NCBI GenBank assembly: GCA_043819795.1
Contig: JBDREN010000171.1
Location: forward strand, 1 to 45,991
Direction: 5' to 3'
DNA length: 45,991 nucleotides
DNA from: Elusimicrobiota bacterium
GTDB lineage: Bacteria; Elusimicrobiota; Elusimicrobia; UBA1565
This document shows positions 16,268-28,385 of the stretch, one piece after another; within the stretch, counting starts at the first letter, position 1, and each line of letters begins with the position of its first letter. The notes under the pieces were generated by a model. The model had not been told where the DNA came from. It saw only the letters and a program-made list of their open reading frames with translations, and did no database searches. A program made the position numbers and the translations under genes.

Positions 16268-19200
16268 TCACTTCTTCGCCCCCCCGGAAGCGGCGCGAGC
16301 GGGCGCCGCCCGGCCCGCCAGCCAAAGCGCGAACCGCGCGAGCGCCCCGCTCCTCGCCGGCGTGAGGCCCTCCGCGACGAGCTTCTTGTAGGCGGCGTGC
16401 ACGGCGCTGAAGCCGTCGCCGATGGCGTAGTCCGGCTGATCATGCTCGTTGCTCAGCGTGTCCATGGACGCCTTCACGATCTTATTGAGAGCCGGCCCCA
16501 CCTTGGTGACGCCGAAAAGCATGGCCAGCATCACGAGCGTTCCCGCGAATTTGGGCGTCGACATGGAGGTCCCCGAGATGGCCTTGACCGGGCCCAGTTT
16601 CGGGTCCACCCGGCCCGGCCTGCGGTCGGCCGGCCACGGGCCCTCCGTATCCTCGCCCTGCTCCGCGACGTCGGGCTTGCGCGGATAGTCCTTCCATTTG
16701 CCGCCGCGCTCCGTCACCTGGCTGCCCGGCCCCTGGGAGGAGAAGGCCGCCCGCTTCTTGTTTCGCTTCGTTGCCGCCACGGCGATCACGCCGGGCGCGC
16801 CGGTCACCGCATCCCGGTGATGGATGATCGCCGGCGAGCCGATGGTGTTCTTCCCGTAATAGCCGTTGTTGCCCGCGGCGAAGACCATTATATGGCCTTC
16901 CTCGGCGAGCTTCTTGACCAGGATGGAATCGGGGCTCTCGGGGTTCCCGTCGCCGGAGCCCCACGAGTTGGAGATCACGATGTTGCCGTCGTTGCCGGCC
17001 ATCGTCAGGGCCTTGAGCACGTCGTCGAGGGTCGCGCCGCCGTTCGAGAACGCCTTGTAATGGGTGAGGCTTCCCCTGAGCCAGGGCGCGAACCACAGGA
17101 CCATCCCCGTCACCCAGGAGCCGTGCCCGTTGTCGTCCGCTCCGTCGCCTCCCGGCCTCACGTCCTTCGCGGCCTTGAGGCCGGGCTTGATGAGCTTATG
17201 CCCGGCGTCGACGCCGGTGTCGATGACCCCGACCGGGGGCTGGGGGATGGCGGTGCCCGCCAGCCGCAGCGCGGCCCTGGCCAGCCGGGCTCCGAAGCTC
17301 TCGCCCGGCGGGCCCCATTGCTTCCGGGCGATCTCGTGCACCTTGTCCATCGTGGAGATCTTCAGGGTCTCGGGCATCGTCACGGCGCCGCCCCGCTGGG
17401 GCCGGGCCAACGGCTTCTTCGCGCTCGGATCGTCCTCGATGGGCCGGACGATCTCGCGCCGCTCGTTGTCGTATACCTTGAAGCCCCTGGCCGTCATCGC
17501 GGCCTTGAACTCGGCGGCCCGAGGAGCGGGGACGCGGATCGTGGCCGTGTTTATCCTCTTATAGGTAGCCACGGGAGCGGCGTTGAAGGCGCTGAGGGAC
17601 TGCGATTCGAGGCCGGCCAAAGCGAGCTGGGCCGCCATCGCCTGCTGCATCGCCCCGTAGCGGCGCATGCCGCCGAGCAGCCCCACGTCGGCGAGGCTGA
17701 GCATGATGTCGTGGGAAAGCGGGCGCTTGCTGCCGGTGAAGCGCACGATGACGTCCACCGCCGCGGGTGTCTCCTGGGCCGCCTCCGCCGCCTGGACCGG
17801 CGCATCCGACGAGCCGGGCATGAACCGCCCGGCCAACAGCCCCACCGCCATCAACGCCGGCAGCGCGGCCGAGGCCATCTGCGTGGGAGTCCGCAGCAGC
17901 CACGCGCTCGCCTTGGAGATGGTGTAGACGAGCCCGCCGGACAAGAACGCAAGCGCCGCCAGACCGACGCCGATCTGGGTCATGCGATGCGAATCGAGCC
18001 ACTTCGCCACGCGGGGCGCCTTGAACCAGTCCGAGACGACGTGCCGGACGACGTGGCTCCCGTCGAGCGGCGCGAAGGGCAGGAGGTTGAACACGCCGAG
18101 CAGCACGTTGAAGAATACCGCCAACGCCGCCACCGTGGGCGCGATCCCCGTCACGCCGAGCGCCAGCAGGGCCGCATGGACGGCCCCGGCCCCGACGGCG
18201 ACGCCGAAGTTCACGGCCGGCCCGGCCAGCGCCACCTTGGCCATGTCCGCGCTCGGCCGCTTGAAGCTGGCCGGATCCACCCGGACGGGCTTGGCCCCGC
18301 CCAGGGCGATCGGGACGCCGAAGGACGCCATCGAAGCCGCGAGCATCCCGATGGGGAGCAGGAGCGTCGCGAAAGGATCTATATGGGAAAGGAGGCTCTT
18401 CGGCGTGAAGCTCATGCGGCCCGCCAGCTTCGGAGCGGAATCGCCCAGCTTGTCGGCGGCCCAGGCATGGCCCATCTCATGAAGGATAAGGGATGGGACC
18501 ACGATCCCCAGATACGCCGCGATCGCCACCGGCAGCGTCAGCGACGCCATAGCGGCGGCCATGACGCCGGTGCCCGCCACGATGCCCGGAAGCGCCGAGA
18601 AGAGGACGTCGTTGCCGCCCCCGCCGCCGCCTCCGAAATCGCCGGGGTAATCCGTCGAGTCCGGGCCCGGGTCGGTCTGCCGCCGCGGGTTGCCCAGGTC
18701 GTCGACGTCGGGGTTGATGTCGTTGCCGCCGTCCTCGTCCCGCGTCCGGGGATAGTCCGGCATGTTGGACCGGCCCCTCCGAGCGGCCTGCAGCCGGACG
18801 GACGAGCGAGAGAACGAAGCCAGCGTCCCGTCCCGCGAAGCGGCCGCGGCCACGGAGCGGCCGGAGAAGGCGCTGCCGGGGCCGATCCGGGCGATGAAAT
18901 CGGTATGGGCCGCGTCCTTGGCGGCGGCCGACGACATGCTCCCGAACCTCGGGATATTCAGGCTCAGACCCTTGATCGCGCTCCGGGCCCTATTCTCGCC
19001 TTCGCGCTTCGCGACGGCGGACCGCGCGCCGGGAGGTCCGCGGGTATCGGAGAGAGAGAGCTGCGGGGCGGCGGAAGCCCGCGGGGATTCGGCGATCGAA
19101 GCGGCCGCGGACGGAATCGCGCTCGGGAGGACGGACGCGGCCGCCGGAAGAGCCTGGCTGGCCGATCTTGCGTCGACCTTGGGCGCGGGAGCCAGAGTGG

Positions 19201-19435
19201 GCAGCGCGCTCCTTCCGAGATTCAACTGGATCGGATGGACCGAAGAGCCCGGGGCGCTCAGGCGCACGGCGCCCGCGACGCCCACGGCGCCGAGGGATCC
19301 CACCCCGATGGCCTTCGAGGCGGAGGCCGCGCCGGCGGCCATCCCCGCCGCGGCCGCGTAGCAGCCGAAGCCCGGGGACATCGCGATGAGATTGACGGAG
19401 ATCACTGCGGCGATAGCGGAACGCATTAGTTTCAT
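16268..19435 (-). CDS. Fusion protein: signal peptide, Ala/Ser-rich region, M50 site-2 protease domain, propeptide-like region, S8 subtilase domain
   Basis: M50 motifs HEMGH, VALAGPAVN and FNLLPFAPLDG. S8 motifs VIDTG, NGHGS, AAGN and SGTSMS. ATG 19435 follows SD GGGAGGA; TATAAT at 19502-19497. Confidence 0.88.
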   Translation of the reverse strand: MKLMRSAIAAVISVNLIAMSPGFGCYAAAAGMAAGAASASKAIGVGSLGAVGVAGAVRLSAPGSSVHPIQLNLGRSALPTLAPAPKVDARSASQALPAAASVLPSAIPSAAASIAESPRASAAPQLSLSDTRGPPGARSAVAKREGENRARSAIKGLSLNIPRFGSMSSAAAKDAAHTDFIARIGPGSAFSGRSVAAAASRDGTLASFSRSSVRLQAARRGRSNMPDYPRTRDEDGGNDINPDVDDLGNPRRQTDPGPDSTDYPGDFGGGGGGGNDVLFSALPGIVAGTGVMAAAMASLTLPVAIAAYLGIVVPSLILHEMGHAWAADKLGDSAPKLAGRMSFTPKSLLSHIDPFATLLLPIGMLAASMASFGVPIALGGAKPVRVDPASFKRPSADMAKVALAGPAVNFGVAVGAGAVHAALLALGVTGIAPTVAALAVFFNVLLGVFNLLPFAPLDGSHVVRHVVSDWFKAPRVAKWLDSHRMTQIGVGLAALAFLSGGLVYTISKASAWLLRTPTQMASAALPALMAVGLLAGRFMPGSSDAPVQAAEAAQETPAAVDVIVRFTGSKRPLSHDIMLSLADVGLLGGMRRYGAMQQAMAAQLALAGLESQSLSAFNAAPVATYKRINTATIRVPAPRAAEFKAAMTARGFKVYDNERREIVRPIEDDPSAKKPLARPQRGGAVTMPETLKISTMDKVHEIARKQWGPPGESFGARLARAALRLAGTAIPQPPVGVIDTGVDAGHKLIKPGLKAAKDVRPGGDGADDNGHGSWVTGMVLWFAPWLRGSLTHYKAFSNGGATLDDVLKALTMAGNDGNIVISNSWGSGDGNPESPDSILVKKLAEEGHIMVFAAGNNGYYGKNTIGSPAIIHHRDAVTGAPGVIAVAATKRNKKRAAFSSQGPGSQVTERGGKWKDYPRKPDVAEQGEDTEGPWPADRRPGRVDPKLGPVKAISGTSMSTPKFAGTLVMLAMLFGVTKVGPALNKIVKASMDTLSNEHDQPDYAIGDGFSAVHAAYKKLVAEGLTPARSGALARFALWLAGRAAPARAASGGAKK

Positions 19436-19619: not shown

Positions 19620-19648
19620 TTGACAGTTAAGACATTAAGCATTACATT
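19620..19648 (+). promoter_or_regulatory. Sigma70-type promoter of the MarR-TolC/RND operon, probably giving a leaderless mRNA
   Basis: TTGACA (19620-19625), 17-nt spacer, TACATT (19643-19648), then ATG 7 nt later with no SD. TTAA-N4-TTAA in the spacer is a candidate operator. Confidence 0.7.
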
Positions 19649-19655
19649 CCCTGGC

Positions 19656-21743
19656 ATGCCCCCCCCACAACCCCGTCCCGGCAAACCCGCCGGGACCCGC
19701 GAACAGCTGGGCCGCTACTACGGGGAGCGGTTCCGCTACATGAAGAGCCGCTACCCCGCGTTCGACCCCGTGCTCGCCGAGACCCACCTAAGCCTCATCC
19801 GCACGAGCGACATGCTCTGGCGGATGCTGGGGCGCTATCTCCGCCCCTACGACCTCACCCCCCCGGCGATGGGGATCCTCATCCTGCTCGAAAGCGGCCG
19901 GAGCGCGCTGCCGATGCGCCGGCTGAGCCGGCAGATGGTCGTGACCCAGGCCAACGTCACCGGCCTCGTCGACACCCTCGAGAAGCGGGGCTTGGTGCGC
20001 CGCCGCGCCGATCCCGGGGACCGGCGCGTGACCTTGATCGAGATCACCGAGACCGGGCGCGGGAGATTGAACAAACTGCTTCCCGGATACTTCCGCCTGC
20101 TCCATTCGGTCTACGGCGGCCTCGGCCGGAAGAAGACCGCGACCCTGAGCCGCGCCCTCGAGACCATCCGCGCGCGGCTTCTTCCCTTCATGGGCCTGGC
20201 CCTGCTGCTGGCCGCCCCGGCCGCGCGCGCAACGGCGGCCCCTTCCCCGGAGGACGCGCCGGTCTCCGCCTCCAGCGGACCGGCCGCCGGGACGCTGCGT
20301 CTGCGCGCCGCGGTCGAGACCGCCCTGCGGGGGCATCCTGCTTTGCAGGAGCCGCGATCGGCCCTGGACCGGGCTCTGGCCGCGCAGATGCGCCTCCTCG
20401 GAGACTACGACACATCCCTCACGGCGAGCCTGCGGCGCCTCGACAGCAAGACGCCGCCGCACCTGTTCTTCGGGGCCCCCCGGACGACCACCGACAGCTT
20501 CGCCGCGGCCGCCCGGCGCCGCTTCGCCACCGGGACGCGGGCCGAGGTCGGGACCTCCTATGCGCGCGAGCAAGACGACGCCAGCTCGACCTTCGTCGTC
20601 AATCCCCGCGCCCGCTCCCGCCTGGACCTCAGCCTCGCCCAATCTTTGCTCAAGGGCATGGTGGGACGCCCCGAACGCGCGGCGCTGCGCGCCTCGGCCC
20701 TCGCGGTACGCTCCGCGCGCGCCTCCCTGGGGCGCGCGGCCGAGAGGCTGGCCCGCGACGTCAGCGCGGCCTATTGGGAGCTCTGGCGCAGCCGCCGCGA
20801 CGTGGAGGTGCTCCGCGCCTCCGTGGAGGAGGCCCGCGAGTTCCTCGAGACCACGCGCAAGCTATTCAAGCGCTATGAGGCCGAGAAAGACGACCTGCTC
20901 CGCGCCGAGGCGGACCTTCTCGCCAAGGAGCTCGAGGTGCTCGCGTCCCAAGAGCGGGTCCGGGAGAGGACCGAGGACCTGCGCGTGGCCGCGGCGCTGT
21001 CCTCCGAGGAGATCGAAGCCGGCATATTGGAAGAGCCCGCCGAGCCGGAGGAGGTCCCTTCCGCTGAGACCGCCCTTGCGCGCGCTCTGGAGCTCCGGAA
21101 GGACCTGCGGGCCCTCAGACTCCATGCCGAGATCGATCGCATCAACCTCGACGCGGCGGCCGGGCTGGGACTGCCGACCCTCGACCTGACCGGCGCCTGG
21201 GGCTGGTCGGGGCTCAAGACCGGCATCTCGGACAGCCTGGCCCAGCTCGGGCGCATGGGCTTTCGCACATGGAGCGTCGGGCTGGACCTCTCATACGCCT
21301 TTGGAACGCGCAAAGACAGGGGCCAGCGCCTGGACGCCGAGACGGCCCGGGCCCTTTCGTCCGCTCGCGTGGATCAGCTCCGGCGCGAGATCGAGCGAGA
21401 GATAACGGTCGCCGTCAGCCGGCTTCGCCTCGCGGGAGAGCGGGTGAGGATCACGCGCCGCCTGGAGACCATGCAGGAGGAGGTCCTCAAGATCTCCCGG
21501 CAGAAATACGGCCAGGGCCGCATCACGAGCCGCGAGCGGCTCGAGAGCGCGAACGCCGCCCTGCTGGCCCGCAGCGCCCGGCTCGCCGCGGTCGCCCAGC
21601 ACGCGGCCGCGCTCTCGGCCCAGAAGGCGGGCGAGGGAGCCCTGCTTGAGTGGCTCGGGGTGCCCCTCTCGGCGACGCTCACTCCGGCCCCGGGACCGGT
21701 CCTCACCCGCGCTCTTCCGGCGACGCGGCGGGAGCGCCCATGA
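19656..21743 (+). CDS. MarR-family regulator fused in frame to a signal-peptide-like segment and a TolC-family outer membrane efflux protein
   Basis: MarR part: YDLTPP..IL, NVTGLVDTLEKRGLVRR..DPGDRRVTLIEITETG. Then RARLLPFMGLALLLAAPAARA. TolC-like repeats: AVETALRGHP, DVSAAYWEL, ALELRKDL, LPTLDLTG, KYGQG. No stop codon between the parts. Confidence 0.85.
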   Translation: MPPPQPRPGKPAGTREQLGRYYGERFRYMKSRYPAFDPVLAETHLSLIRTSDMLWRMLGRYLRPYDLTPPAMGILILLESGRSALPMRRLSRQMVVTQANVTGLVDTLEKRGLVRRRADPGDRRVTLIEITETGRGRLNKLLPGYFRLLHSVYGGLGRKKTATLSRALETIRARLLPFMGLALLLAAPAARATAAPSPEDAPVSASSGPAAGTLRLRAAVETALRGHPALQEPRSALDRALAAQMRLLGDYDTSLTASLRRLDSKTPPHLFFGAPRTTTDSFAAAARRRFATGTRAEVGTSYAREQDDASSTFVVNPRARSRLDLSLAQSLLKGMVGRPERAALRASALAVRSARASLGRAAERLARDVSAAYWELWRSRRDVEVLRASVEEAREFLETTRKLFKRYEAEKDDLLRAEADLLAKELEVLASQERVRERTEDLRVAAALSSEEIEAGILEEPAEPEEVPSAETALARALELRKDLRALRLHAEIDRINLDAAAGLGLPTLDLTGAWGWSGLKTGISDSLAQLGRMGFRTWSVGLDLSYAFGTRKDRGQRLDAETARALSSARVDQLRREIEREITVAVSRLRLAGERVRITRRLETMQEEVLKISRQKYGQGRITSRERLESANAALLARSARLAAVAQHAAALSAQKAGEGALLEWLGVPLSATLTPAPGPVLTRALPATRRERP

Positions 21744-24700
21744 CGCCCGATCCTCCCCGCGACCCGCGCGAGCTGGGGCTCTTCCGCTTCTTCGCCCGCC
21801 AGCACGTTTTCACGAACCTCGTCGTGCTCTTCGTGCTGGTCGTCGGAGGCTGGCTCGCCGTCACGATCACGAAGGAAGCCTTCCCCCAGATCGACTTCGA
21901 CATCGTCCTCATCCAGACGCCCTTCCGGGGGGCGGTGCCCGAGGAAGTGGAGCGGCTCGTAACGGTGCCGATCGAGCGCGCCATCAAAGGCATCGACGGG
22001 ATCGAGGACATGGACTCCTGGTCGGTCGAGGGCTTCTCCGTCATCGTGCTGCGCCTGGACCCCGACCACCCGGACAAGAAGAAGACCGTCAAGGACGTCG
22101 AGCGAGAGGTCGACCGGGTGCGCAACTCCGAGCTTCCGGAGGACGGCGACGAGCCCTTCGTCGACGAGCTGAGCTCGATCCATCCGGTGCTGAGCGTGGA
22201 CCTCTCGAGCGCGCCCGAACGCGAGCTGCGCCTCATCGCGCGCCTGCTCGAGGACGACATCCTGGAGATCCCGGGAGTAAACAAGGTGACGAAAGGCGGC
22301 TACCGCCGCGAGCAGATCTGGGTCGAGGCCGACCAGTCCGAGCTCGGGAAGCTGCACCTCTCGCTGCTGGACCTCATCAACGCCGTCGCGCGCTCGAACC
22401 ACACCTCCCCCGGCGGCCGGATGGTCATCGACGGCAAGGAGGTCCTGGTGCGCACGATGGGCCGTCTGCAGACGGCCAAGGACGTGCGGGACGTGGTGGT
22501 CCGCTCCAACGTCGAGGGGCAGAACGTGCACCTGCGCGACGTCGCGCGCGTCTTCGACGGCTTCGAACGCGAGGAGACGTTCACCCGGGTGAACGGGACG
22601 AAGGCCCTGCACCTGACGATCTTCAAAAAACCGAGCGGCGACGCGCTCGACATCGCCAAGGAGGTCCGAAAGACGGTCGACCGCTATCGCAAGCTCCATC
22701 CCCGCGCGAGCTTCACCTACTCCGACGACATCTCCTTCTACATCAAGCGCCGCCTCGACGTGCTGGTGCGCAACGGCAGCCAGGGCATCGTGCTCGTGCT
22801 GCTCTGCCTGTTCTTCTTCCTGTCGCCGGGAAGCGCCATCTTCACCACGATCGCGATCCCCTTCGCCTTCCTGGGCGGGCTCATCGTGATACACCTGATG
22901 GGCTACACCGTGAACCTCCTCACCATGTTCGCCTTCATCCTGGTCTCGGGCATGCTGGTGGACGACGGGGTGGTCGTCTCGGAGTTCTACGAAAAGAAGC
23001 GCGAGGAGGGGCTTCCCCCCTTCCAGGCGTCCGTGGTCGGGACCTCACAGATGGCTCTGCCGATCACGACCGCGGTCCTCACCACGATCGTGGCTTTCAT
23101 GCCTCTCGCCTACGTCTCCGGCATCATGGGGAAGTTCCTCCGGCAGTTCCCGGTCGTGGTCGTGGCCACGCTCATCGTGGATCTCCTGGAATGCCTGTTC
23201 ATCCTGCCGAGCCACCTGGCGCTGTTCTCGGCGCGGCTGCGCTTTCCGGAGCGCGTCGAGCGCCTGCGCAGCTGGGGGCCCCGGATGTTCAAGGCTGTCG
23301 AAAGGCTCTATACGCCCTGGCTGAGCCGCTTCGTGCGCCATCCCATCCTGGGGACGTCTTTCTTCATGGTCCTTCTCATCGTCTCGCTCGGACTCTCGAT
23401 CGTCCTTCTTCGGTTCCACATGTTCCCCGTGGCCGTTGACGAGTTCTTCGTCTCCATCGAGATGCCCATAGGCACCAGCCTCCAGAAGACGAGCGAAACG
23501 TCGGCCGAGATCGAGCGCATCCTGCAGGGGCTGCCGGCCCACGAGGTCGAGTCCATCATCAGCGAGATGGGGATCATGGGCGACGAGCACCAGCGTCAGC
23601 GCGGCACCCACTACGCCCAGTCCCGCATCATCCTCGATCGCACGGGAGCTCGCACGCGCGACGGCAGAGAGATCCTAGGTGAGATCCGTCCCCGGCTGGA
23701 AGCGACCGCCGAACGGCTCGGCGTGGTGAATCTGGAGATCCAGCAGCGCCGCGCCGGCCCCCCTTCGGGCAAGCCCGTCGAGGTAAGGCTGGCCGGCGAC
23801 GACTTCGAGGTCCTTTCGGGACTGTCCCACAAGGCCCGGGGCTGGCTCACGGAGCAGGACGGCGTCTTCGGCGTGAAGGACGATTTCACGCCGGGCAAAG
23901 AGGAACTGCTCCTGGAGGTGGACGTGGACGCCGTCGCCCGCGCGGGCCTCGAGCCCCGCCTGGTCGCGCGGGTCGTCCGCTCCGCGTTCGACGGGGAGAT
24001 CGCGACCGAGATCCAAAGGGTGGACGCCGACGAGGACATCGAGGTTCTCGTCAAGCTGCCGGAGTCCGCCCGCGGCTCCCGAGACACTCTCGAGCGGATC
24101 CGCGTCACGAACCCGCGCGGACGCCTCGTCCCCCTCTCTCAGCTCATACGCTCGCGCAAGGGCTCGGGCTATCTCATGATCCCGCACGCCGAGGGGAAGA
24201 GGACCATCACGGTCACCGCGGACGTGGACCAGGACGTCACCACATCGCGGCGGGCCACGGCCGACCTCGACTCCTTCCTCCGGGGACTCATGGCAGACTA
24301 CCCATCGGTCCGCTACGAGTTCGTAGGGGAGGAGAAGGACCGGATCGAATCGATCGCGTCCCTGCGCCGGGCGATGGCCATCGCCTGCATCGTGATCTAC
24401 ACGCTGATGGCGACGCTCCTGCGCTCATTCACGCTGCCTTTGATCGTCATGTCCATCATCCCCTTCGCCTTCATCGGCGTGTTCCTCACGCTGCTGCTGC
24501 ACGGCCTGCCCCTCTCGATGCTGGTGCTCATCGGCCTGGCCGGCCTCATGGGAGTGGTCGTCAACAACTCGATCCTCCTGGTCGAGGCGGTCGGCCGCCT
24601 GGCCGTGGAAAGGCCGGACCTCGACCTGCCCGGCCGCCTCGTAGAGGCCGGCCGCCAGCGACTGAGGCCGATCCTACTGACCAGCATCACGACCTTCTTC

Positions 24701-24919
24701 GGCGTCGCCCCGCTGGGCTACGGCATCGGGGGCCGGGAGCCCTTCCTCGAGCACGTGGCCCTCACCTTCGGCTGGGGGCTCCTCTTCACCGCCTTCGTCA
24801 CGCTCTTCCTGGTGCCGACCCTCTACGCCCTCCTCCACCGGTTTCTTCCCTCCGCCCTGGCGCGGGACCTGCCGGCCGGCGCCGGCAACGGCGCGGTCGG
24901 CGAGGCTCGCCAACCTTGA
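21740..24919 (+). CDS. RND (AcrB/AcrD/AcrF family) efflux permease
   Basis: Motifs EAFPQID, GAVPEEVERLVT.PIE, GMLVDDGVVV (TM4), GVVVNNSILLV and RLRPILLTS; about 1059 aa. ATG 21740 overlaps the upstream TGA. Confidence 0.95.
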   Translation: MTPDPPRDPRELGLFRFFARQHVFTNLVVLFVLVVGGWLAVTITKEAFPQIDFDIVLIQTPFRGAVPEEVERLVTVPIERAIKGIDGIEDMDSWSVEGFSVIVLRLDPDHPDKKKTVKDVEREVDRVRNSELPEDGDEPFVDELSSIHPVLSVDLSSAPERELRLIARLLEDDILEIPGVNKVTKGGYRREQIWVEADQSELGKLHLSLLDLINAVARSNHTSPGGRMVIDGKEVLVRTMGRLQTAKDVRDVVVRSNVEGQNVHLRDVARVFDGFEREETFTRVNGTKALHLTIFKKPSGDALDIAKEVRKTVDRYRKLHPRASFTYSDDISFYIKRRLDVLVRNGSQGIVLVLLCLFFFLSPGSAIFTTIAIPFAFLGGLIVIHLMGYTVNLLTMFAFILVSGMLVDDGVVVSEFYEKKREEGLPPFQASVVGTSQMALPITTAVLTTIVAFMPLAYVSGIMGKFLRQFPVVVVATLIVDLLECLFILPSHLALFSARLRFPERVERLRSWGPRMFKAVERLYTPWLSRFVRHPILGTSFFMVLLIVSLGLSIVLLRFHMFPVAVDEFFVSIEMPIGTSLQKTSETSAEIERILQGLPAHEVESIISEMGIMGDEHQRQRGTHYAQSRIILDRTGARTRDGREILGEIRPRLEATAERLGVVNLEIQQRRAGPPSGKPVEVRLAGDDFEVLSGLSHKARGWLTEQDGVFGVKDDFTPGKEELLLEVDVDAVARAGLEPRLVARVVRSAFDGEIATEIQRVDADEDIEVLVKLPESARGSRDTLERIRVTNPRGRLVPLSQLIRSRKGSGYLMIPHAEGKRTITVTADVDQDVTTSRRATADLDSFLRGLMADYPSVRYEFVGEEKDRIESIASLRRAMAIACIVIYTLMATLLRSFTLPLIVMSIIPFAFIGVFLTLLLHGLPLSMLVLIGLAGLMGVVVNNSILLVEAVGRLAVERPDLDLPGRLVEAGRQRLRPILLTSITTFFGVAPLGYGIGGREPFLEHVALTFGWGLLFTAFVTLFLVPTLYALLHRFLPSALARDLPAGAGNGAVGEARQP

Positions 24920-24944
24920 CGAAGCGTCGGACTTCCGTTAAGCT
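24916..24944 (+). promoter_or_regulatory. Putative promoter for the TldD/TldE pair
   Basis: TTGACG, 17-nt spacer, TAAGCT. SD GGAGGT before ATG 24964. Confidence 0.5.
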
Positions 24945-24963
24945 ACCGGGGACCGGAGGTAAC

Positions 24964-26688
24964 ATGAATCGTCACGCCCGATCCCTCATCGCAGCGCTCC
25001 TGGCCGCCGTCCTGGCCCATCTCCCCGCCCGGCTACTCGCCGCCGAGACGCCGGACGACGACCCGGTGCTCTCGGCCATGCGCAAGGAGCTCGAGCGCTC
25101 GTTCTCGGCTCTCCAGAACGCCGAGAAGACCCCGCTCTACTTCCTCGGCTACCAGATCCGCGACACCCGCAGCTACCATCTCGACGCGCTCCTGGGCGCC
25201 ATCCGTTCGGAGAACGACCGCCGCCACCGCTTCCTAGACGTGGACGTCCGCGTTGGCAGCCGCAAGCTCGACAATACCCACCAGATCAAGGGCGCCGGGA
25301 GCTGGCTCGAGCGAAGCGGAGAGCGGCACACCGAGGTGACGGTAGATGACGACGGAGACGCCCTGCGCGCCGATATCTGGCGCCGCACGGACAAGGCCTT
25401 CAAGGAGGCATTCCGCCGCTACACGAAAGTCGTCACGAACAAGGCCGTGACGGCGGAGGAAGAGGACAAGTCGTGGGACTTCTCCGAGGAGAAGCCGGCC
25501 CGCTTCTACGAGAAGATCCCGCATCCGGAGGTGGACAAGAATGCATGGCGCGAACGCCTGCGCCGCATTTCGGCCACCTTCAAGAAGTACCCATTCATCA
25601 TAGACACCGGGGTCTCGCTCAGCGTCGACACCCTCCACCGCTACATGGTCAACTCCGAGGGCGCCGAGATCGTCACCGGCGACCGCTATATCCGCCTCAG
25701 CTACCGCATCTCCGCGCGCACGGACGACGGCATGGACCTCGACCGCTTCCGGAGCTACGACGCGGACCGCCTCGAAGACCTGCCCGGCGAAGCGGCGATC
25801 ATCGCCGACATGGAACGCTCGGCCGCCGAGCTCCAGGCGCTGCACAAGGCGCCGCTCGTGGAGCCCTTCAACGGCCCGGCGATCTTCCGCAACAGGGCCA
25901 CGGGCGTATACTTCCACGAGATACTGGGCCACCGGCTCGAGGGCCACCGCCAGAAGCTCGAGGAGGAGGGGCAGACCTTCACGAAGAAGCTCGACAAGCT
26001 GATCACCGCGCCGTTCATCACCGTCTACGACGACCCGAAGCTCGATCGCTTCCGAGGACAGTTCCTCCGGGGCGCCTACCGATACGATGACGAAGGCGTC
26101 GCGTCCAGACGCGTCGACCTGATCCTGAGAGGAAAGCTCAAGGCTTTCCTGATGTCGCGCTCGCCGATCGAGCGCTTCGGCAACTCCAACGGCCACGGCC
26201 GCAGGAGCGCGGGCCACGAGGTCGTGGCCCGGATGGGGAACCTCATCGTCAAGTCCCGACAGAGGGTCTCGAGCCAGAGGCTGCGAGAGATGCTCATCGA
26301 GGAGATACGCAAGCAAGGAAAGCCCTACGGCCTCATCTTCGAGGACATCGCCGGGGGCTTCACGAGCACGTCGCGCCACGGCACGCAGTCGTTCAAGGTG
26401 ATCCCCAAGCTCGTCTACCGCGTCTATCCCGACGGCCGGCCCGATGAGGCCGTCCGCGGGGTGGACATCGTCGGGACGCCGCTCACGGCCTTCACGAAGA
26501 TCATCGGCGCGGGAGACGATCCCGGCGTCTTCAACGGGACCTGCGGCGCGGAATCCGGCTGGGTCCCGGTCTCCGCGGTGGCGCCGAGCATCCTCGTCTC
26601 CGAGATCGAGGTGGAGAAGAAGTTCAAATCCTCCGATAAGCCGCCGGTCCTGTCGCCGCCCCATCACGAGAAGGAGGACCGGCCATGA
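24964..26688 (+). CDS. TldD-like metalloprotease with an N-terminal signal peptide
   Basis: Motifs HEILGHRLEG (HExxxH), YDDEGV, SNGHGR, ARMGNL and C-terminal CGAESG.VPVS. Leader MNRHARSLIAALLAAVLAHLPARLLA. Confidence 0.9.
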   Translation: MNRHARSLIAALLAAVLAHLPARLLAAETPDDDPVLSAMRKELERSFSALQNAEKTPLYFLGYQIRDTRSYHLDALLGAIRSENDRRHRFLDVDVRVGSRKLDNTHQIKGAGSWLERSGERHTEVTVDDDGDALRADIWRRTDKAFKEAFRRYTKVVTNKAVTAEEEDKSWDFSEEKPARFYEKIPHPEVDKNAWRERLRRISATFKKYPFIIDTGVSLSVDTLHRYMVNSEGAEIVTGDRYIRLSYRISARTDDGMDLDRFRSYDADRLEDLPGEAAIIADMERSAAELQALHKAPLVEPFNGPAIFRNRATGVYFHEILGHRLEGHRQKLEEEGQTFTKKLDKLITAPFITVYDDPKLDRFRGQFLRGAYRYDDEGVASRRVDLILRGKLKAFLMSRSPIERFGNSNGHGRRSAGHEVVARMGNLIVKSRQRVSSQRLREMLIEEIRKQGKPYGLIFEDIAGGFTSTSRHGTQSFKVIPKLVYRVYPDGRPDEAVRGVDIVGTPLTAFTKIIGAGDDPGVFNGTCGAESGWVPVSAVAPSILVSEIEVEKKFKSSDKPPVLSPPHHEKEDRP

Positions 26689-28385
26689 GCCGCGCGTTTC
26701 TGCCGCTTTTGTTGTCGCCGCTGCTCCTCACCGCGCCCGCCGCCGACGCCGCATCGGGTGAGCTCCTCCGGGCCCTGAGCGACGAGATGAAACGGACCGT
26801 CGAGCGACTCGAGATGAAGAAGCTGGACAAGCCGTACTTCGTGAGCTATTCGGTGCGCGACGTCCGAAGGATCAGCATCGAGAGCTCCTTCGGCGCGATC
26901 AAGGACCCCCACGAGTACCGCTCGCGACAGCTCAAGGTGGACCTGCGCGTCGGCGGCCGGACGCTCGACAACGCCCATTACGTCGGCAAGGACCACTGGA
27001 GCTACCGCCCGCTCACGGGCCCCCTAGCCCTCGACGACGACTACGACGCGCTCCGCTACGGGACCTGGTCCCTGACCGACAAGGCCTACAAGCAGGCGCT
27101 GCAGAGGCTCGCGCAGAAGAAGGCATACAAGCAGGACAAGCTCATCACGGAGGAAATCCCGGACCTATCCGAGGAGCAGGCTCAGTCTTTTGAGGAGCCG
27201 GCGGCCGACCTCGCCTTCGACCACGCGCTGTGGGAGAGCCGGATGCGCAAGCTGTCGTCGATCTTCAAGAAATATCCGGCCATCCAGAGCTCGGAGGTCG
27301 ACCTGTACTGGACCCAGCGCTATACGTACTTCGTGGACAGCGAGGGCCGCCGGGTCATCAAGCCGGACCATGATTTCGAAATCTACATGAGCGCCTCGAC
27401 GCAGGCGGAGGACGGCATGCGCCTGGGCGACCGCCGCCGCTTCATCAGCAAAACCCGCGCGGGGATACCGCTCTTCTCCGAGCTCGAGACGGGGGCCCTC
27501 CGCTTGGCGAAGGACCTCACGGCCCTCGCGAAGGCCCCGGCCCTCGATAAGCCCTACATCGGCCCGGTGATGATCGAGGGCCAGGCCGCCGGAGAGTTCT
27601 TCGACCAGCTTCTAGCGCACAACATCTCGTTCCCCCGGGAGCTCTGGGTCGAGCAGGACTCCGTCAAGGAGCAATTCCACTCGGGAAGCCTCGCCGGGCG
27701 CCTGGGCCTGCGCGTGCTCAGCCCCCTTCTGAACGTCGTCGATGATCCCTCGCTCGAAGATGCCGAGGGCAAGCCGCTCATCGGCCACTACAGCGTCGAT
27801 GACGAGGGGATCCCGGCCCAGAAAGTCACGCTGATCGAGCGGGGGATTCTCAAGGACCTCCTGATGAGCCGCTCGCCCACGAAGGAGCGCGAGCGCTCCA
27901 ACGGCCACGGCCGCGCCGCCTTCTGGGAGCATACCACGGCCCGCATCAGCAACCTCGTGATCGACGCCGACAAGACCGTCCCCGAGGACGAGCTGAAGCA
28001 GGCCTTTCTGAGGGAAGCGAAGGAGTTCGGGCTGGACTTCGGCCTCATCGTGCGGAGGATCGCCGAGGAGGACCGGCAGGAGAAAGACGAGGTCCTCGCC
28101 GCTCCGGTCATGCTCTACAAGGTCGACGTCTCCAACGGACGCGAGGAGCTGGTCCGCGGCGCCCGATTCACCGGGGTAAGCATGCGCGCATTACGCGACG
28201 TTCTGGCGGCGGGCGACCGGCGCCACGTCTACAACTACTACCAGCTCGGCCCCTACAAGAGCAGCCGCGGGCAGGTCCAGGCGAGCATCGTGCATCCCTC
28301 CGTCCTCCTCGGGGAGATGGAGCTCAAGAAGACGGACAAGAAGCCGGACAAGCTCCCCTACCTTAAGCATCCCCACTTCGACTGA
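26685..28385 (+). CDS. TldE/PmbA-like partner subunit with a signal peptide
   Basis: Paralogue of the upstream gene (KPYFVSY, VDLRVG..TLDN, VDDEGIP, SNGHGR) that lacks HExxxH and the Cys motif. Joined by an ATGA overlap. Confidence 0.85.
   Translation: MSRAFLPLLLSPLLLTAPAADAASGELLRALSDEMKRTVERLEMKKLDKPYFVSYSVRDVRRISIESSFGAIKDPHEYRSRQLKVDLRVGGRTLDNAHYVGKDHWSYRPLTGPLALDDDYDALRYGTWSLTDKAYKQALQRLAQKKAYKQDKLITEEIPDLSEEQAQSFEEPAADLAFDHALWESRMRKLSSIFKKYPAIQSSEVDLYWTQRYTYFVDSEGRRVIKPDHDFEIYMSASTQAEDGMRLGDRRRFISKTRAGIPLFSELETGALRLAKDLTALAKAPALDKPYIGPVMIEGQAAGEFFDQLLAHNISFPRELWVEQDSVKEQFHSGSLAGRLGLRVLSPLLNVVDDPSLEDAEGKPLIGHYSVDDEGIPAQKVTLIERGILKDLLMSRSPTKERERSNGHGRAAFWEHTTARISNLVIDADKTVPEDELKQAFLREAKEFGLDFGLIVRRIAEEDRQEKDEVLAAPVMLYKVDVSNGREELVRGARFTGVSMRALRDVLAAGDRRHVYNYYQLGPYKSSRGQVQASIVHPSVLLGEMELKKTDKKPDKLPYLKHPHFD

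Follow-up and report, generated by a model that had tools for sequence, protein, structure and literature searches.

A single gene of an Elusimicrobiota bacterium encodes both a MarR-type repressor and a TolC-type outer-membrane channel, joined in one uninterrupted reading frame through a segment with the features of a signal peptide; the fusion is real and conserved, and is not a one-off assembly error. The gene is located at positions 19656-21743 of the window, i.e. the whole stretch of 45,991 nucleotides that we have analysed. In the reading that we favour, with a probability of roughly 70%, the chain is exported from its internal signal and cut by signal peptidase I after A192, and the MarR half represses its own operon, either tethered to the membrane or freed by RseP.

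The fused gene and its domains

The features of the fused gene and of the gene that follows it are:

19656-21743, plus strand: fused ORF marR-signal-tolC (695 aa, uninterrupted frame, no internal stop)
19695-20177 (aa 14-174), plus strand: MarR winged-helix repressor domain with extra N-terminal helices (Pfam, alignment, AlphaFold model, Foldseek, PDB sequences)
20130-20177 (aa 159-174), plus strand: last MarR helix, its basic end being the predicted n-region (alignment, model, charge profile)
20178-20219 (aa 175-188), plus strand: hydrophobic h-region, including the non-conserved M179, ATG 20190 (alignment, hydropathy)
20220-20231, plus strand: c-region ending in A-x-A, with the predicted signal peptidase I cut at A192/T193, 20231/20232 (motif only)
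20232-20294, plus strand: Pro/Ala linker, exceeding that of most relatives by 16 aa (alignment)
20295-21665 (aa 214-670), plus strand: TolC-family outer-membrane factor with two OEP repeats and four predicted barrel strands (Pfam, model, fold matches)
21740-24919, plus strand: RND permease of the AcrB/AcrD/AcrF family (E 1.5e-174), its start overlapping the stop of the fused gene; same order in loci L031-L036

The first-pass annotation had described one 695-aa ORF composed of MarR, a signal segment and TolC, and Pfam, the structural model and the fold matches agree on this composition. Pfam locates MarR (PF01047) at aa 67-125, with an E-value of 2e-11, above the cut-off, and matches OEP twice in the 695-aa chain (E 3e-30). 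The MarR half has the winged helix that defines the MarR family, and its comparison with PDB sequences has returned 62 matches, mostly MarR-named. The dimer of MarR proteins is formed by their end helices; in the AlphaFold model of the fused chain, built from a 16-row alignment (mean pLDDT 74, pTM 0.55), the final MarR helix runs continuously from aa 158 to aa 186, into the hydrophobic segment, and behind the MarR helices come a linker of low confidence and a TolC body, which has four barrel strands. When this model was searched with Foldseek, TolC/OprM-type PDB chains ranked first (best E 3e-16), and MarR chains (HpaR, MftR, MexR) ranked below them. Judging from Pfam and the model, the TolC half has the composition of the TolC/OEP family: each chain has two OEP repeats, four barrel strands and a helical barrel. 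The signal peptide that this family carries at the N-terminus is not found there, the signal-like segment being internal (aa 159-192). The TolC half scores under the NCBIfam cut-offs for the named TolC subfamilies, and the ESM Atlas returns nothing more specific than generic OEP clusters. The two halves are similarly conserved, at 0.69 (MarR core columns) vs 0.69/0.64 (TolC columns).

Conservation of the fusion

A protein search restricted to lengths of 382-1217 aa, with 8000 candidates scored, has returned 19 matches: the query, 13 full-length relatives, two partial relatives and three TolC-only proteins. The full-length relatives (636-666 aa, 49-56% identity to the query) all combine MarR with OEP, and the two partial ones include the seam, in frame, while the TolC-only matches are just 22-29% identical to the query; a free orthologue of this TolC, which at ~470 aa would lie inside the searched range, was not found. 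The source names and record titles of the relatives are Elusimicrobiota, and the database labels of the fused ones are plain TolC or hypothetical. At the level of whole genomes, the close match is a single frame in G000, G072, G182 and G406, and in G382 it is interrupted by contig ends, which leave the seam whole; overall, the fusion is present in 5 of the 17 genomes and 3 of the 10 genera of the taxonomic family. The orthologues in these genomes are fused and do not occur as two genes, in keeping with the architecture reported for the window.

Neither a stop nor an indel occurs at the seam in the 13 full-length and two partial relatives, nor in a contig of sequencing run X2 (151 nt, depth 2.9) that spans 20062-20212 with no difference and no gap, and is perhaps not independent of the assembly; runs X1, X3 and X4 have yielded only short or divergent pieces. 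That the fusion is an artefact of assembly, or that two adjacent genes have merged into a dead one, has a practically negligible probability: one distant fused protein (P0047, described below) is a single record, but the 16 proteins of the family of the window gene (family 1) come from several sources, the X2 contig agrees with the assembly, and both halves and the operator are conserved intact.

A region search for other long MarR proteins has found only family 1 and unrelated fusions, S8 or response-regulator ones, without a signal, a weak result in that it recovered just 5 of the 16 family-1 proteins. Several candidates were set aside: the long frames over MarR genes in G462 and G298 are overlaps with other frames and not fusions, the long OEP frames on contigs C139 and C114 of the source genome are no fusions either, and the flags of a TGA inside the match in G182 and G382 are ordinary stop codons. 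At locus L035 (1294-1370), an ATG just past the promoter and the fused ORF are in different frames, close to an A run; this frame break is likely a homopolymer error, so that the protein P0014 has been called short.

The predicted internal signal

The positions given earlier for the seam hold: the internal ATG at 20190 encodes M179, and the A-x-A that ends at 20231 corresponds to aa 192, with alternative candidate signal peptidase I sites nearby, after A189 or A194. In all 22 fused proteins that we have compared, the eight residues that precede the h-region carry a net charge of +1 to +4, and all 22 have an uncharged run of 14-28 residues with a best 10-residue hydropathy of 2.3-3.6, next to 12-23 residues and 2.1-3.2 in the signals of 17 free TolCs used as controls. 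A strict A-x-A follows the h-region in 18 of the 22, and the other four have a small-x-small variant, assigned by eye; the rule is crude, as the strict form is met by 4/17 control signals and a looser one by 12/17. This scoring of charge, hydropathy and A-x-A is a description and not a predictor, and Ala-rich proteins yield A-x-A easily. As far as such patterns can tell, the fused chains fit the Sec/signal peptidase I layout of a basic n-region, an h-region and a small-x-small c-region.

The free MarR proteins of related clades terminate a few residues past the same helix position, which suggests that the n-region is the last helix of MarR itself, and that the original start of TolC has been lost into the MarR helix; every row of the alignment is free of gaps from the MarR wing to the h-region. 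On the other side of the seam, the TolC core begins 2-5 residues past the A-x-A in several relatives. As the N-terminus of TolC is located at mid-height of the periplasmic barrel, a chain that is still held in the inner membrane could not be expected to reach the position of TolC over so short a distance.

This geometry bears on the alternative of an uncut chain, a one-pass inner-membrane regulator of the ToxR/CadC type, with the TolC-like part serving as a periplasmic sensor or being degraded. Transcription factors such as TcpP and ToxR are active in the membrane (PMC10202637), and the adaptor (MFP) gene that a tripartite RND efflux operon would have does not adjoin the fused gene and the RND gene; the genome has five HlyD_D23 matches elsewhere, four of them above the cut-off. 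However, ordinary free TolCs are likewise found in TolC-RND operons that have no neighbouring adaptor (L011, L027, L047-L053), the uncharged run is often just 14-16 residues long and ends in A-x-A, and both TolC repeats and the four barrel strands have been retained; we consider an uncut chain very unlikely. The proposal of a polyprotein split by signal peptidase I, which was made from the window sequence, stands as the best reading, with the seam conserved in frame and the cleavage itself being a prediction.

Internal starts and alternative frames

A separate start for TolC had been judged unlikely, as the internal ATG at 20190 has no Shine-Dalgarno sequence and a start there would lose the basic n-region. 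This ATG is not conserved: of the 16 rows, 11 have Leu in the M179 column, two have Met, two Ile and one Val. The missing Shine-Dalgarno sequence weighs little, and the absence of start codons weighs more, since Shine-Dalgarno energies do not discriminate between the 384 likely starts (median -4.15) and 5182 internal codons (median -3.9); a generic anti-Shine-Dalgarno was used in this comparison, as the 16S 3' end was not found in the source genome.

Start codons upstream of the h-region were counted directly. Met occurs within the 22 residues before it in 7/22 fused proteins, and ATG, GTG or TTG occurs in the corresponding 22 codons in five of seven DNA sequences, several of them at one helix position, next to an expectation of 4.0/7 from other windows of the same genes; the window gene and L035 have none. 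The shared position is located in MarR helix 6, 11 codons (14 in the second fusion family) before the h-region: it is ATG in L034 and L046, where a purine-rich run precedes it, TTG in L032 and L033, CTG in the window gene and CTA in L035, and L031 has a GTG one codon upstream.

Hidden in-frame starts are thus plausible in some relatives, and the strict 1:1 synthesis of the two products that had been proposed may fail in L034 and L046. Extended to the family, the argument would be that most TolC is made from a hidden start in helix 6, the full-length chain being mainly the source of MarR and still being cut or trimmed. The shared position and the upstream purine-rich runs speak for such a start, but the observed count is near the expected one, the position is mostly Leu, a normal hydrophobic helix site, the purine runs stem from Lys/Glu codons, and neither the window gene nor L035 has a usable codon; we regard this alternative as unlikely. 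It would also leave a puzzle, because MarR can be obtained only from the full-length chain.

Programmed frameshifting at the seam, which would release free MarR and produce TolC by read-through, has in its favour a CTT-CCC-like run, which occurs at the seam in four of the seven loci. However, no stop separates MarR from TolC in frame, and in the window the next stop comes after 340 codons in the +1 frame and after 237 in the -1 frame, vs 6 to 142 in the relatives, with no conserved stop in either frame, which makes frameshifting extremely improbable.

Promoter and predicted operator

Two features are located immediately upstream of the fused gene:

19620-19648, plus strand: sigma-70-type promoter (-35 at 19620-19625, 17-nt spacer, -10 at 19643-19648; ATG 7 nt past the -10)
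19623-19642, no strand: 20-bp palindrome, predicted MarR operator, between the -35 and the -10

The promoter search has found one site, vs 0.1 expected in shuffles, and the layout is repeated in five further loci. The distance from the -10 to the ATG is 5-7 nt in five family-1 loci, the window included, and 11 nt at the locus of the second family; this short, conserved spacing points to leaderless translation, and the mRNA of the fused gene likely starts at the ATG.

The palindrome has 82 matching positions out of 120 across six loci, vs 39.9 +/- 6.9 in shuffles, none of 20,000 reaching 82, although the loci are related and this overstates their independence. With a model from which the window site had been excluded, the window site ranks first in the 5.0-Mb genome (23.9 bits, the next site scoring 21.4); the held-out fused locus L042 scores 27.4, and the held-out free MarR loci L021, L018, L025 and L024 score 22-27. 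The palindrome is kept in both fusion families. Its conservation, together with its top rank in the genome, suggests that the MarR half likely acts on DNA, in local autorepression, and the arrangement corresponds to the palindromic operator over the own promoter that is typical of the MarR family.

Proposed mechanism

In the mechanism that we propose, MarR would fold in the cytoplasm, and its basic last helix, together with the h-region, would serve SecA/SecYEG as an internal signal. RodZ offers a parallel: there, SecA targets a hydrophobic segment located behind a 111-residue cytoplasmic domain, and the preceding basic residues matter more than tenfold (PMC5674894). LepB would cut at the A-x-A after A192, as in RsiV, where the A-x-A that signal peptidase cuts is located at residue 66 and follows a regulatory N-terminus (PMC4183432). 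The released TolC would go to BAM and pair with the co-encoded RND pump, and the cut MarR would retain an 18-residue hydrophobic tail.

We consider it somewhat more probable than not that RseP trims this tail and sets MarR free; otherwise, MarR would bind DNA from the membrane, like ToxR and TcpP. RasP is described as acting on RsiV after signal peptidase (PMC10202637), and RseP as one that degrades leftover signal peptides, that of TolC among them (review, PMC9360617). The MarR dimer would sit on the palindrome between the -35 and the -10 until a ligand releases it. A further possibility, which we hold to be doubtful, is that MarR is free and active only after the export of TolC and the cuts by LepB and RseP, in which case the operon would be off only once channels have been exported, and on if export stalls. 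Genes for SecA, Omp85/BamA, SppA, RseP (TIGR00054, 260 bits vs a cut-off of 148) and two signal peptidases of family S26 are present in the genome.

Comparison with known systems

Autoregulated operons of marR and efflux genes, such as mexR-mexAB-oprM and emrRAB, combine a MarR fold with a palindrome over the promoter, in separate genes. The window operon shares with them the fold, the palindrome and the TolC and RND genes, but differs in its fused gene, its lack of an adaptor gene and its probably leaderless start. In Bradyrhizobium japonicum, the gene fbcH, the nearest precedent among polyproteins, reportedly yields two proteins that are split at an internal signal sequence, as we predict here; the products of fbcH are said to be both subunits of an inner-membrane complex, the first being a membrane protein, whereas the present ones would be a soluble transcription factor and an outer-membrane protein.

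A close parallel in the order of steps is with RsiV and RsiP, where, as reported (PMC4183432, PMC10202637, PMC8844934), a cytoplasmic regulatory N-terminus is followed by a membrane segment, an A-x-A cut by signal peptidase I and then an M50 site-2 protease, the cuts being predicted in our case. Their processing is ligand-gated, destroys the inhibitor and has the outer part as sensor, unlike here, where the N-terminal part is a DNA-binding repressor, the outer part is a complete channel, both products would function, and the leader has about 190 aa, vs 66 in RsiV. With MarR as its N-terminal domain, the fused protein resembles the RsiV-type anti-sigma factors without being a member. With RodZ and ToxR/TcpP (PMC5674894, PMC10202637), it shares a folded cytoplasmic domain that is followed by basic residues and an internal hydrophobic segment, and, by prediction, SecA targeting; the anchor of RodZ is uncleaved and 21 residues long (112-132), whereas the h-region here is shorter, is located 175 residues from the start and ends in A-x-A.

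Our literature search on MarR-TolC and TetR-TolC fusions and on bacterial polyproteins split by signal peptidase, in which few subscription papers were covered, has found no report of this arrangement; some of its matches deal, by their abstracts, with AcrAB-TolC of enterobacteria. Each step has a precedent; for a DNA-binding repressor as the leader of an outer-membrane channel, we have found none in the literature searched. If the proposed mechanism is true, a soluble DNA-binding protein of ~175 residues can serve as the n-region of the cleavable signal peptide of an outer-membrane protein, the concept of a signal peptide widens, and the splitting of bacterial polyproteins by signal peptidase is a recurrent event. 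The repressor would likely be among the rare regulators that mature through the secretion machinery, and the system would allow one to ask, in a compact way, if transcription can be set by what becomes of a leftover signal peptide; annotation pipelines that seek signals at the N-terminus only would mislabel such genes.

A second fusion family and the proposed origin of the fusion

Five further MarR-TolC fusions form a second family: a 608-aa protein of genome G373, from another taxonomic family (loci L005/L046, 1489-3315), and P0025, P0026, P0028 and P0029. The MarR of the G373 fusion belongs to the MarR clade of the window gene and is 39-40% identical to its MarR, whereas the TolC and RND are of subfamilies other than those of the window. 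If MarR is indeed active only after export, which we hold to be doubtful, the two families together would represent a recurring class of polyproteins in which a regulator serves as signal peptide. The search with the G373 protein has returned 52 matches, i.e. the five fusions, P0047 and free TolCs, some of which are closer than the fused ones; of the 12 genomes searched, one has the fusion, and a congener has a free TolC at the same place. The rarity of the fusion and the closer free TolCs suggest that it is dispensable in the second family. As a separate observation, P0047, a single record labelled Candidatus Eisenbacteria, joins a distant MarR via a signal-like segment to TolC; it may represent a third origin, or else an error.

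A quick tree was built from 69 TolC parts, among them the nine of 18 locus TolCs that passed the extraction cut-off. Family 1 forms a single clade in it (SH-aLRT 100), at a large distance from family 2, the fused members of which are scattered among free TolCs. In the tree of 31 MarR sequences, family 2 is a clade (97/95), and families 1 and 2 group together weakly (74/61); a single grouping of the three fused MarR groups is not rejected (p-AU 0.475), which leaves the number of origins unfixed. These trees suggest either two or more separate joinings of the module to TolC or one exchange of partners, with repeated gains or losses of the module in family 2.

Unfused, overlapping or near-touching marR-tolC pairs of the same MarR clade occur at G000:C224, L021, L024, L025 and L068, and the gaps in such free pairs are -4, -11, -23 and +12 nt. 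At G000:C224:3940-4970 (L045), a paralogous free marR overlaps the start of a tolC by 4 nt, the tolC being frameshifted and truncated. An overlapping free pair was likely the starting state: in the origin that we propose, overlapping marR and tolC would have fused, and the cell would have tolerated this, since the product is split by the signal. It may be that the fusion is no more than tolerated, which its loss in family 2 would fit.

Neighbouring genes

TolC-RND pairs without an adjoining adaptor seem common in the source genome (window 21740-24919; G000 contigs C52 and C114) and its relatives. On the minus strand, divergent from the fused gene, a large gene at 16268-19435 combines, behind an N-terminus that resembles a signal, an S8 subtilase and an M50 site-2 protease domain, the HExxH and LDG motifs of which are intact, i.e. 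a site-1 and a site-2 protease in one chain; it is kept beside the fusion in L032-L036 and L042. We have set aside this gene as a dedicated second protease, as it belongs, together with polA, to a gene order shared more widely in the family, and it is not located beside the family-2 fusion in L046. Directly after the RND gene, a TldD/PmbA-like protease pair (24916-28385) follows with overlapping ends; this adjacency is lost in L033 and interrupted in L034.
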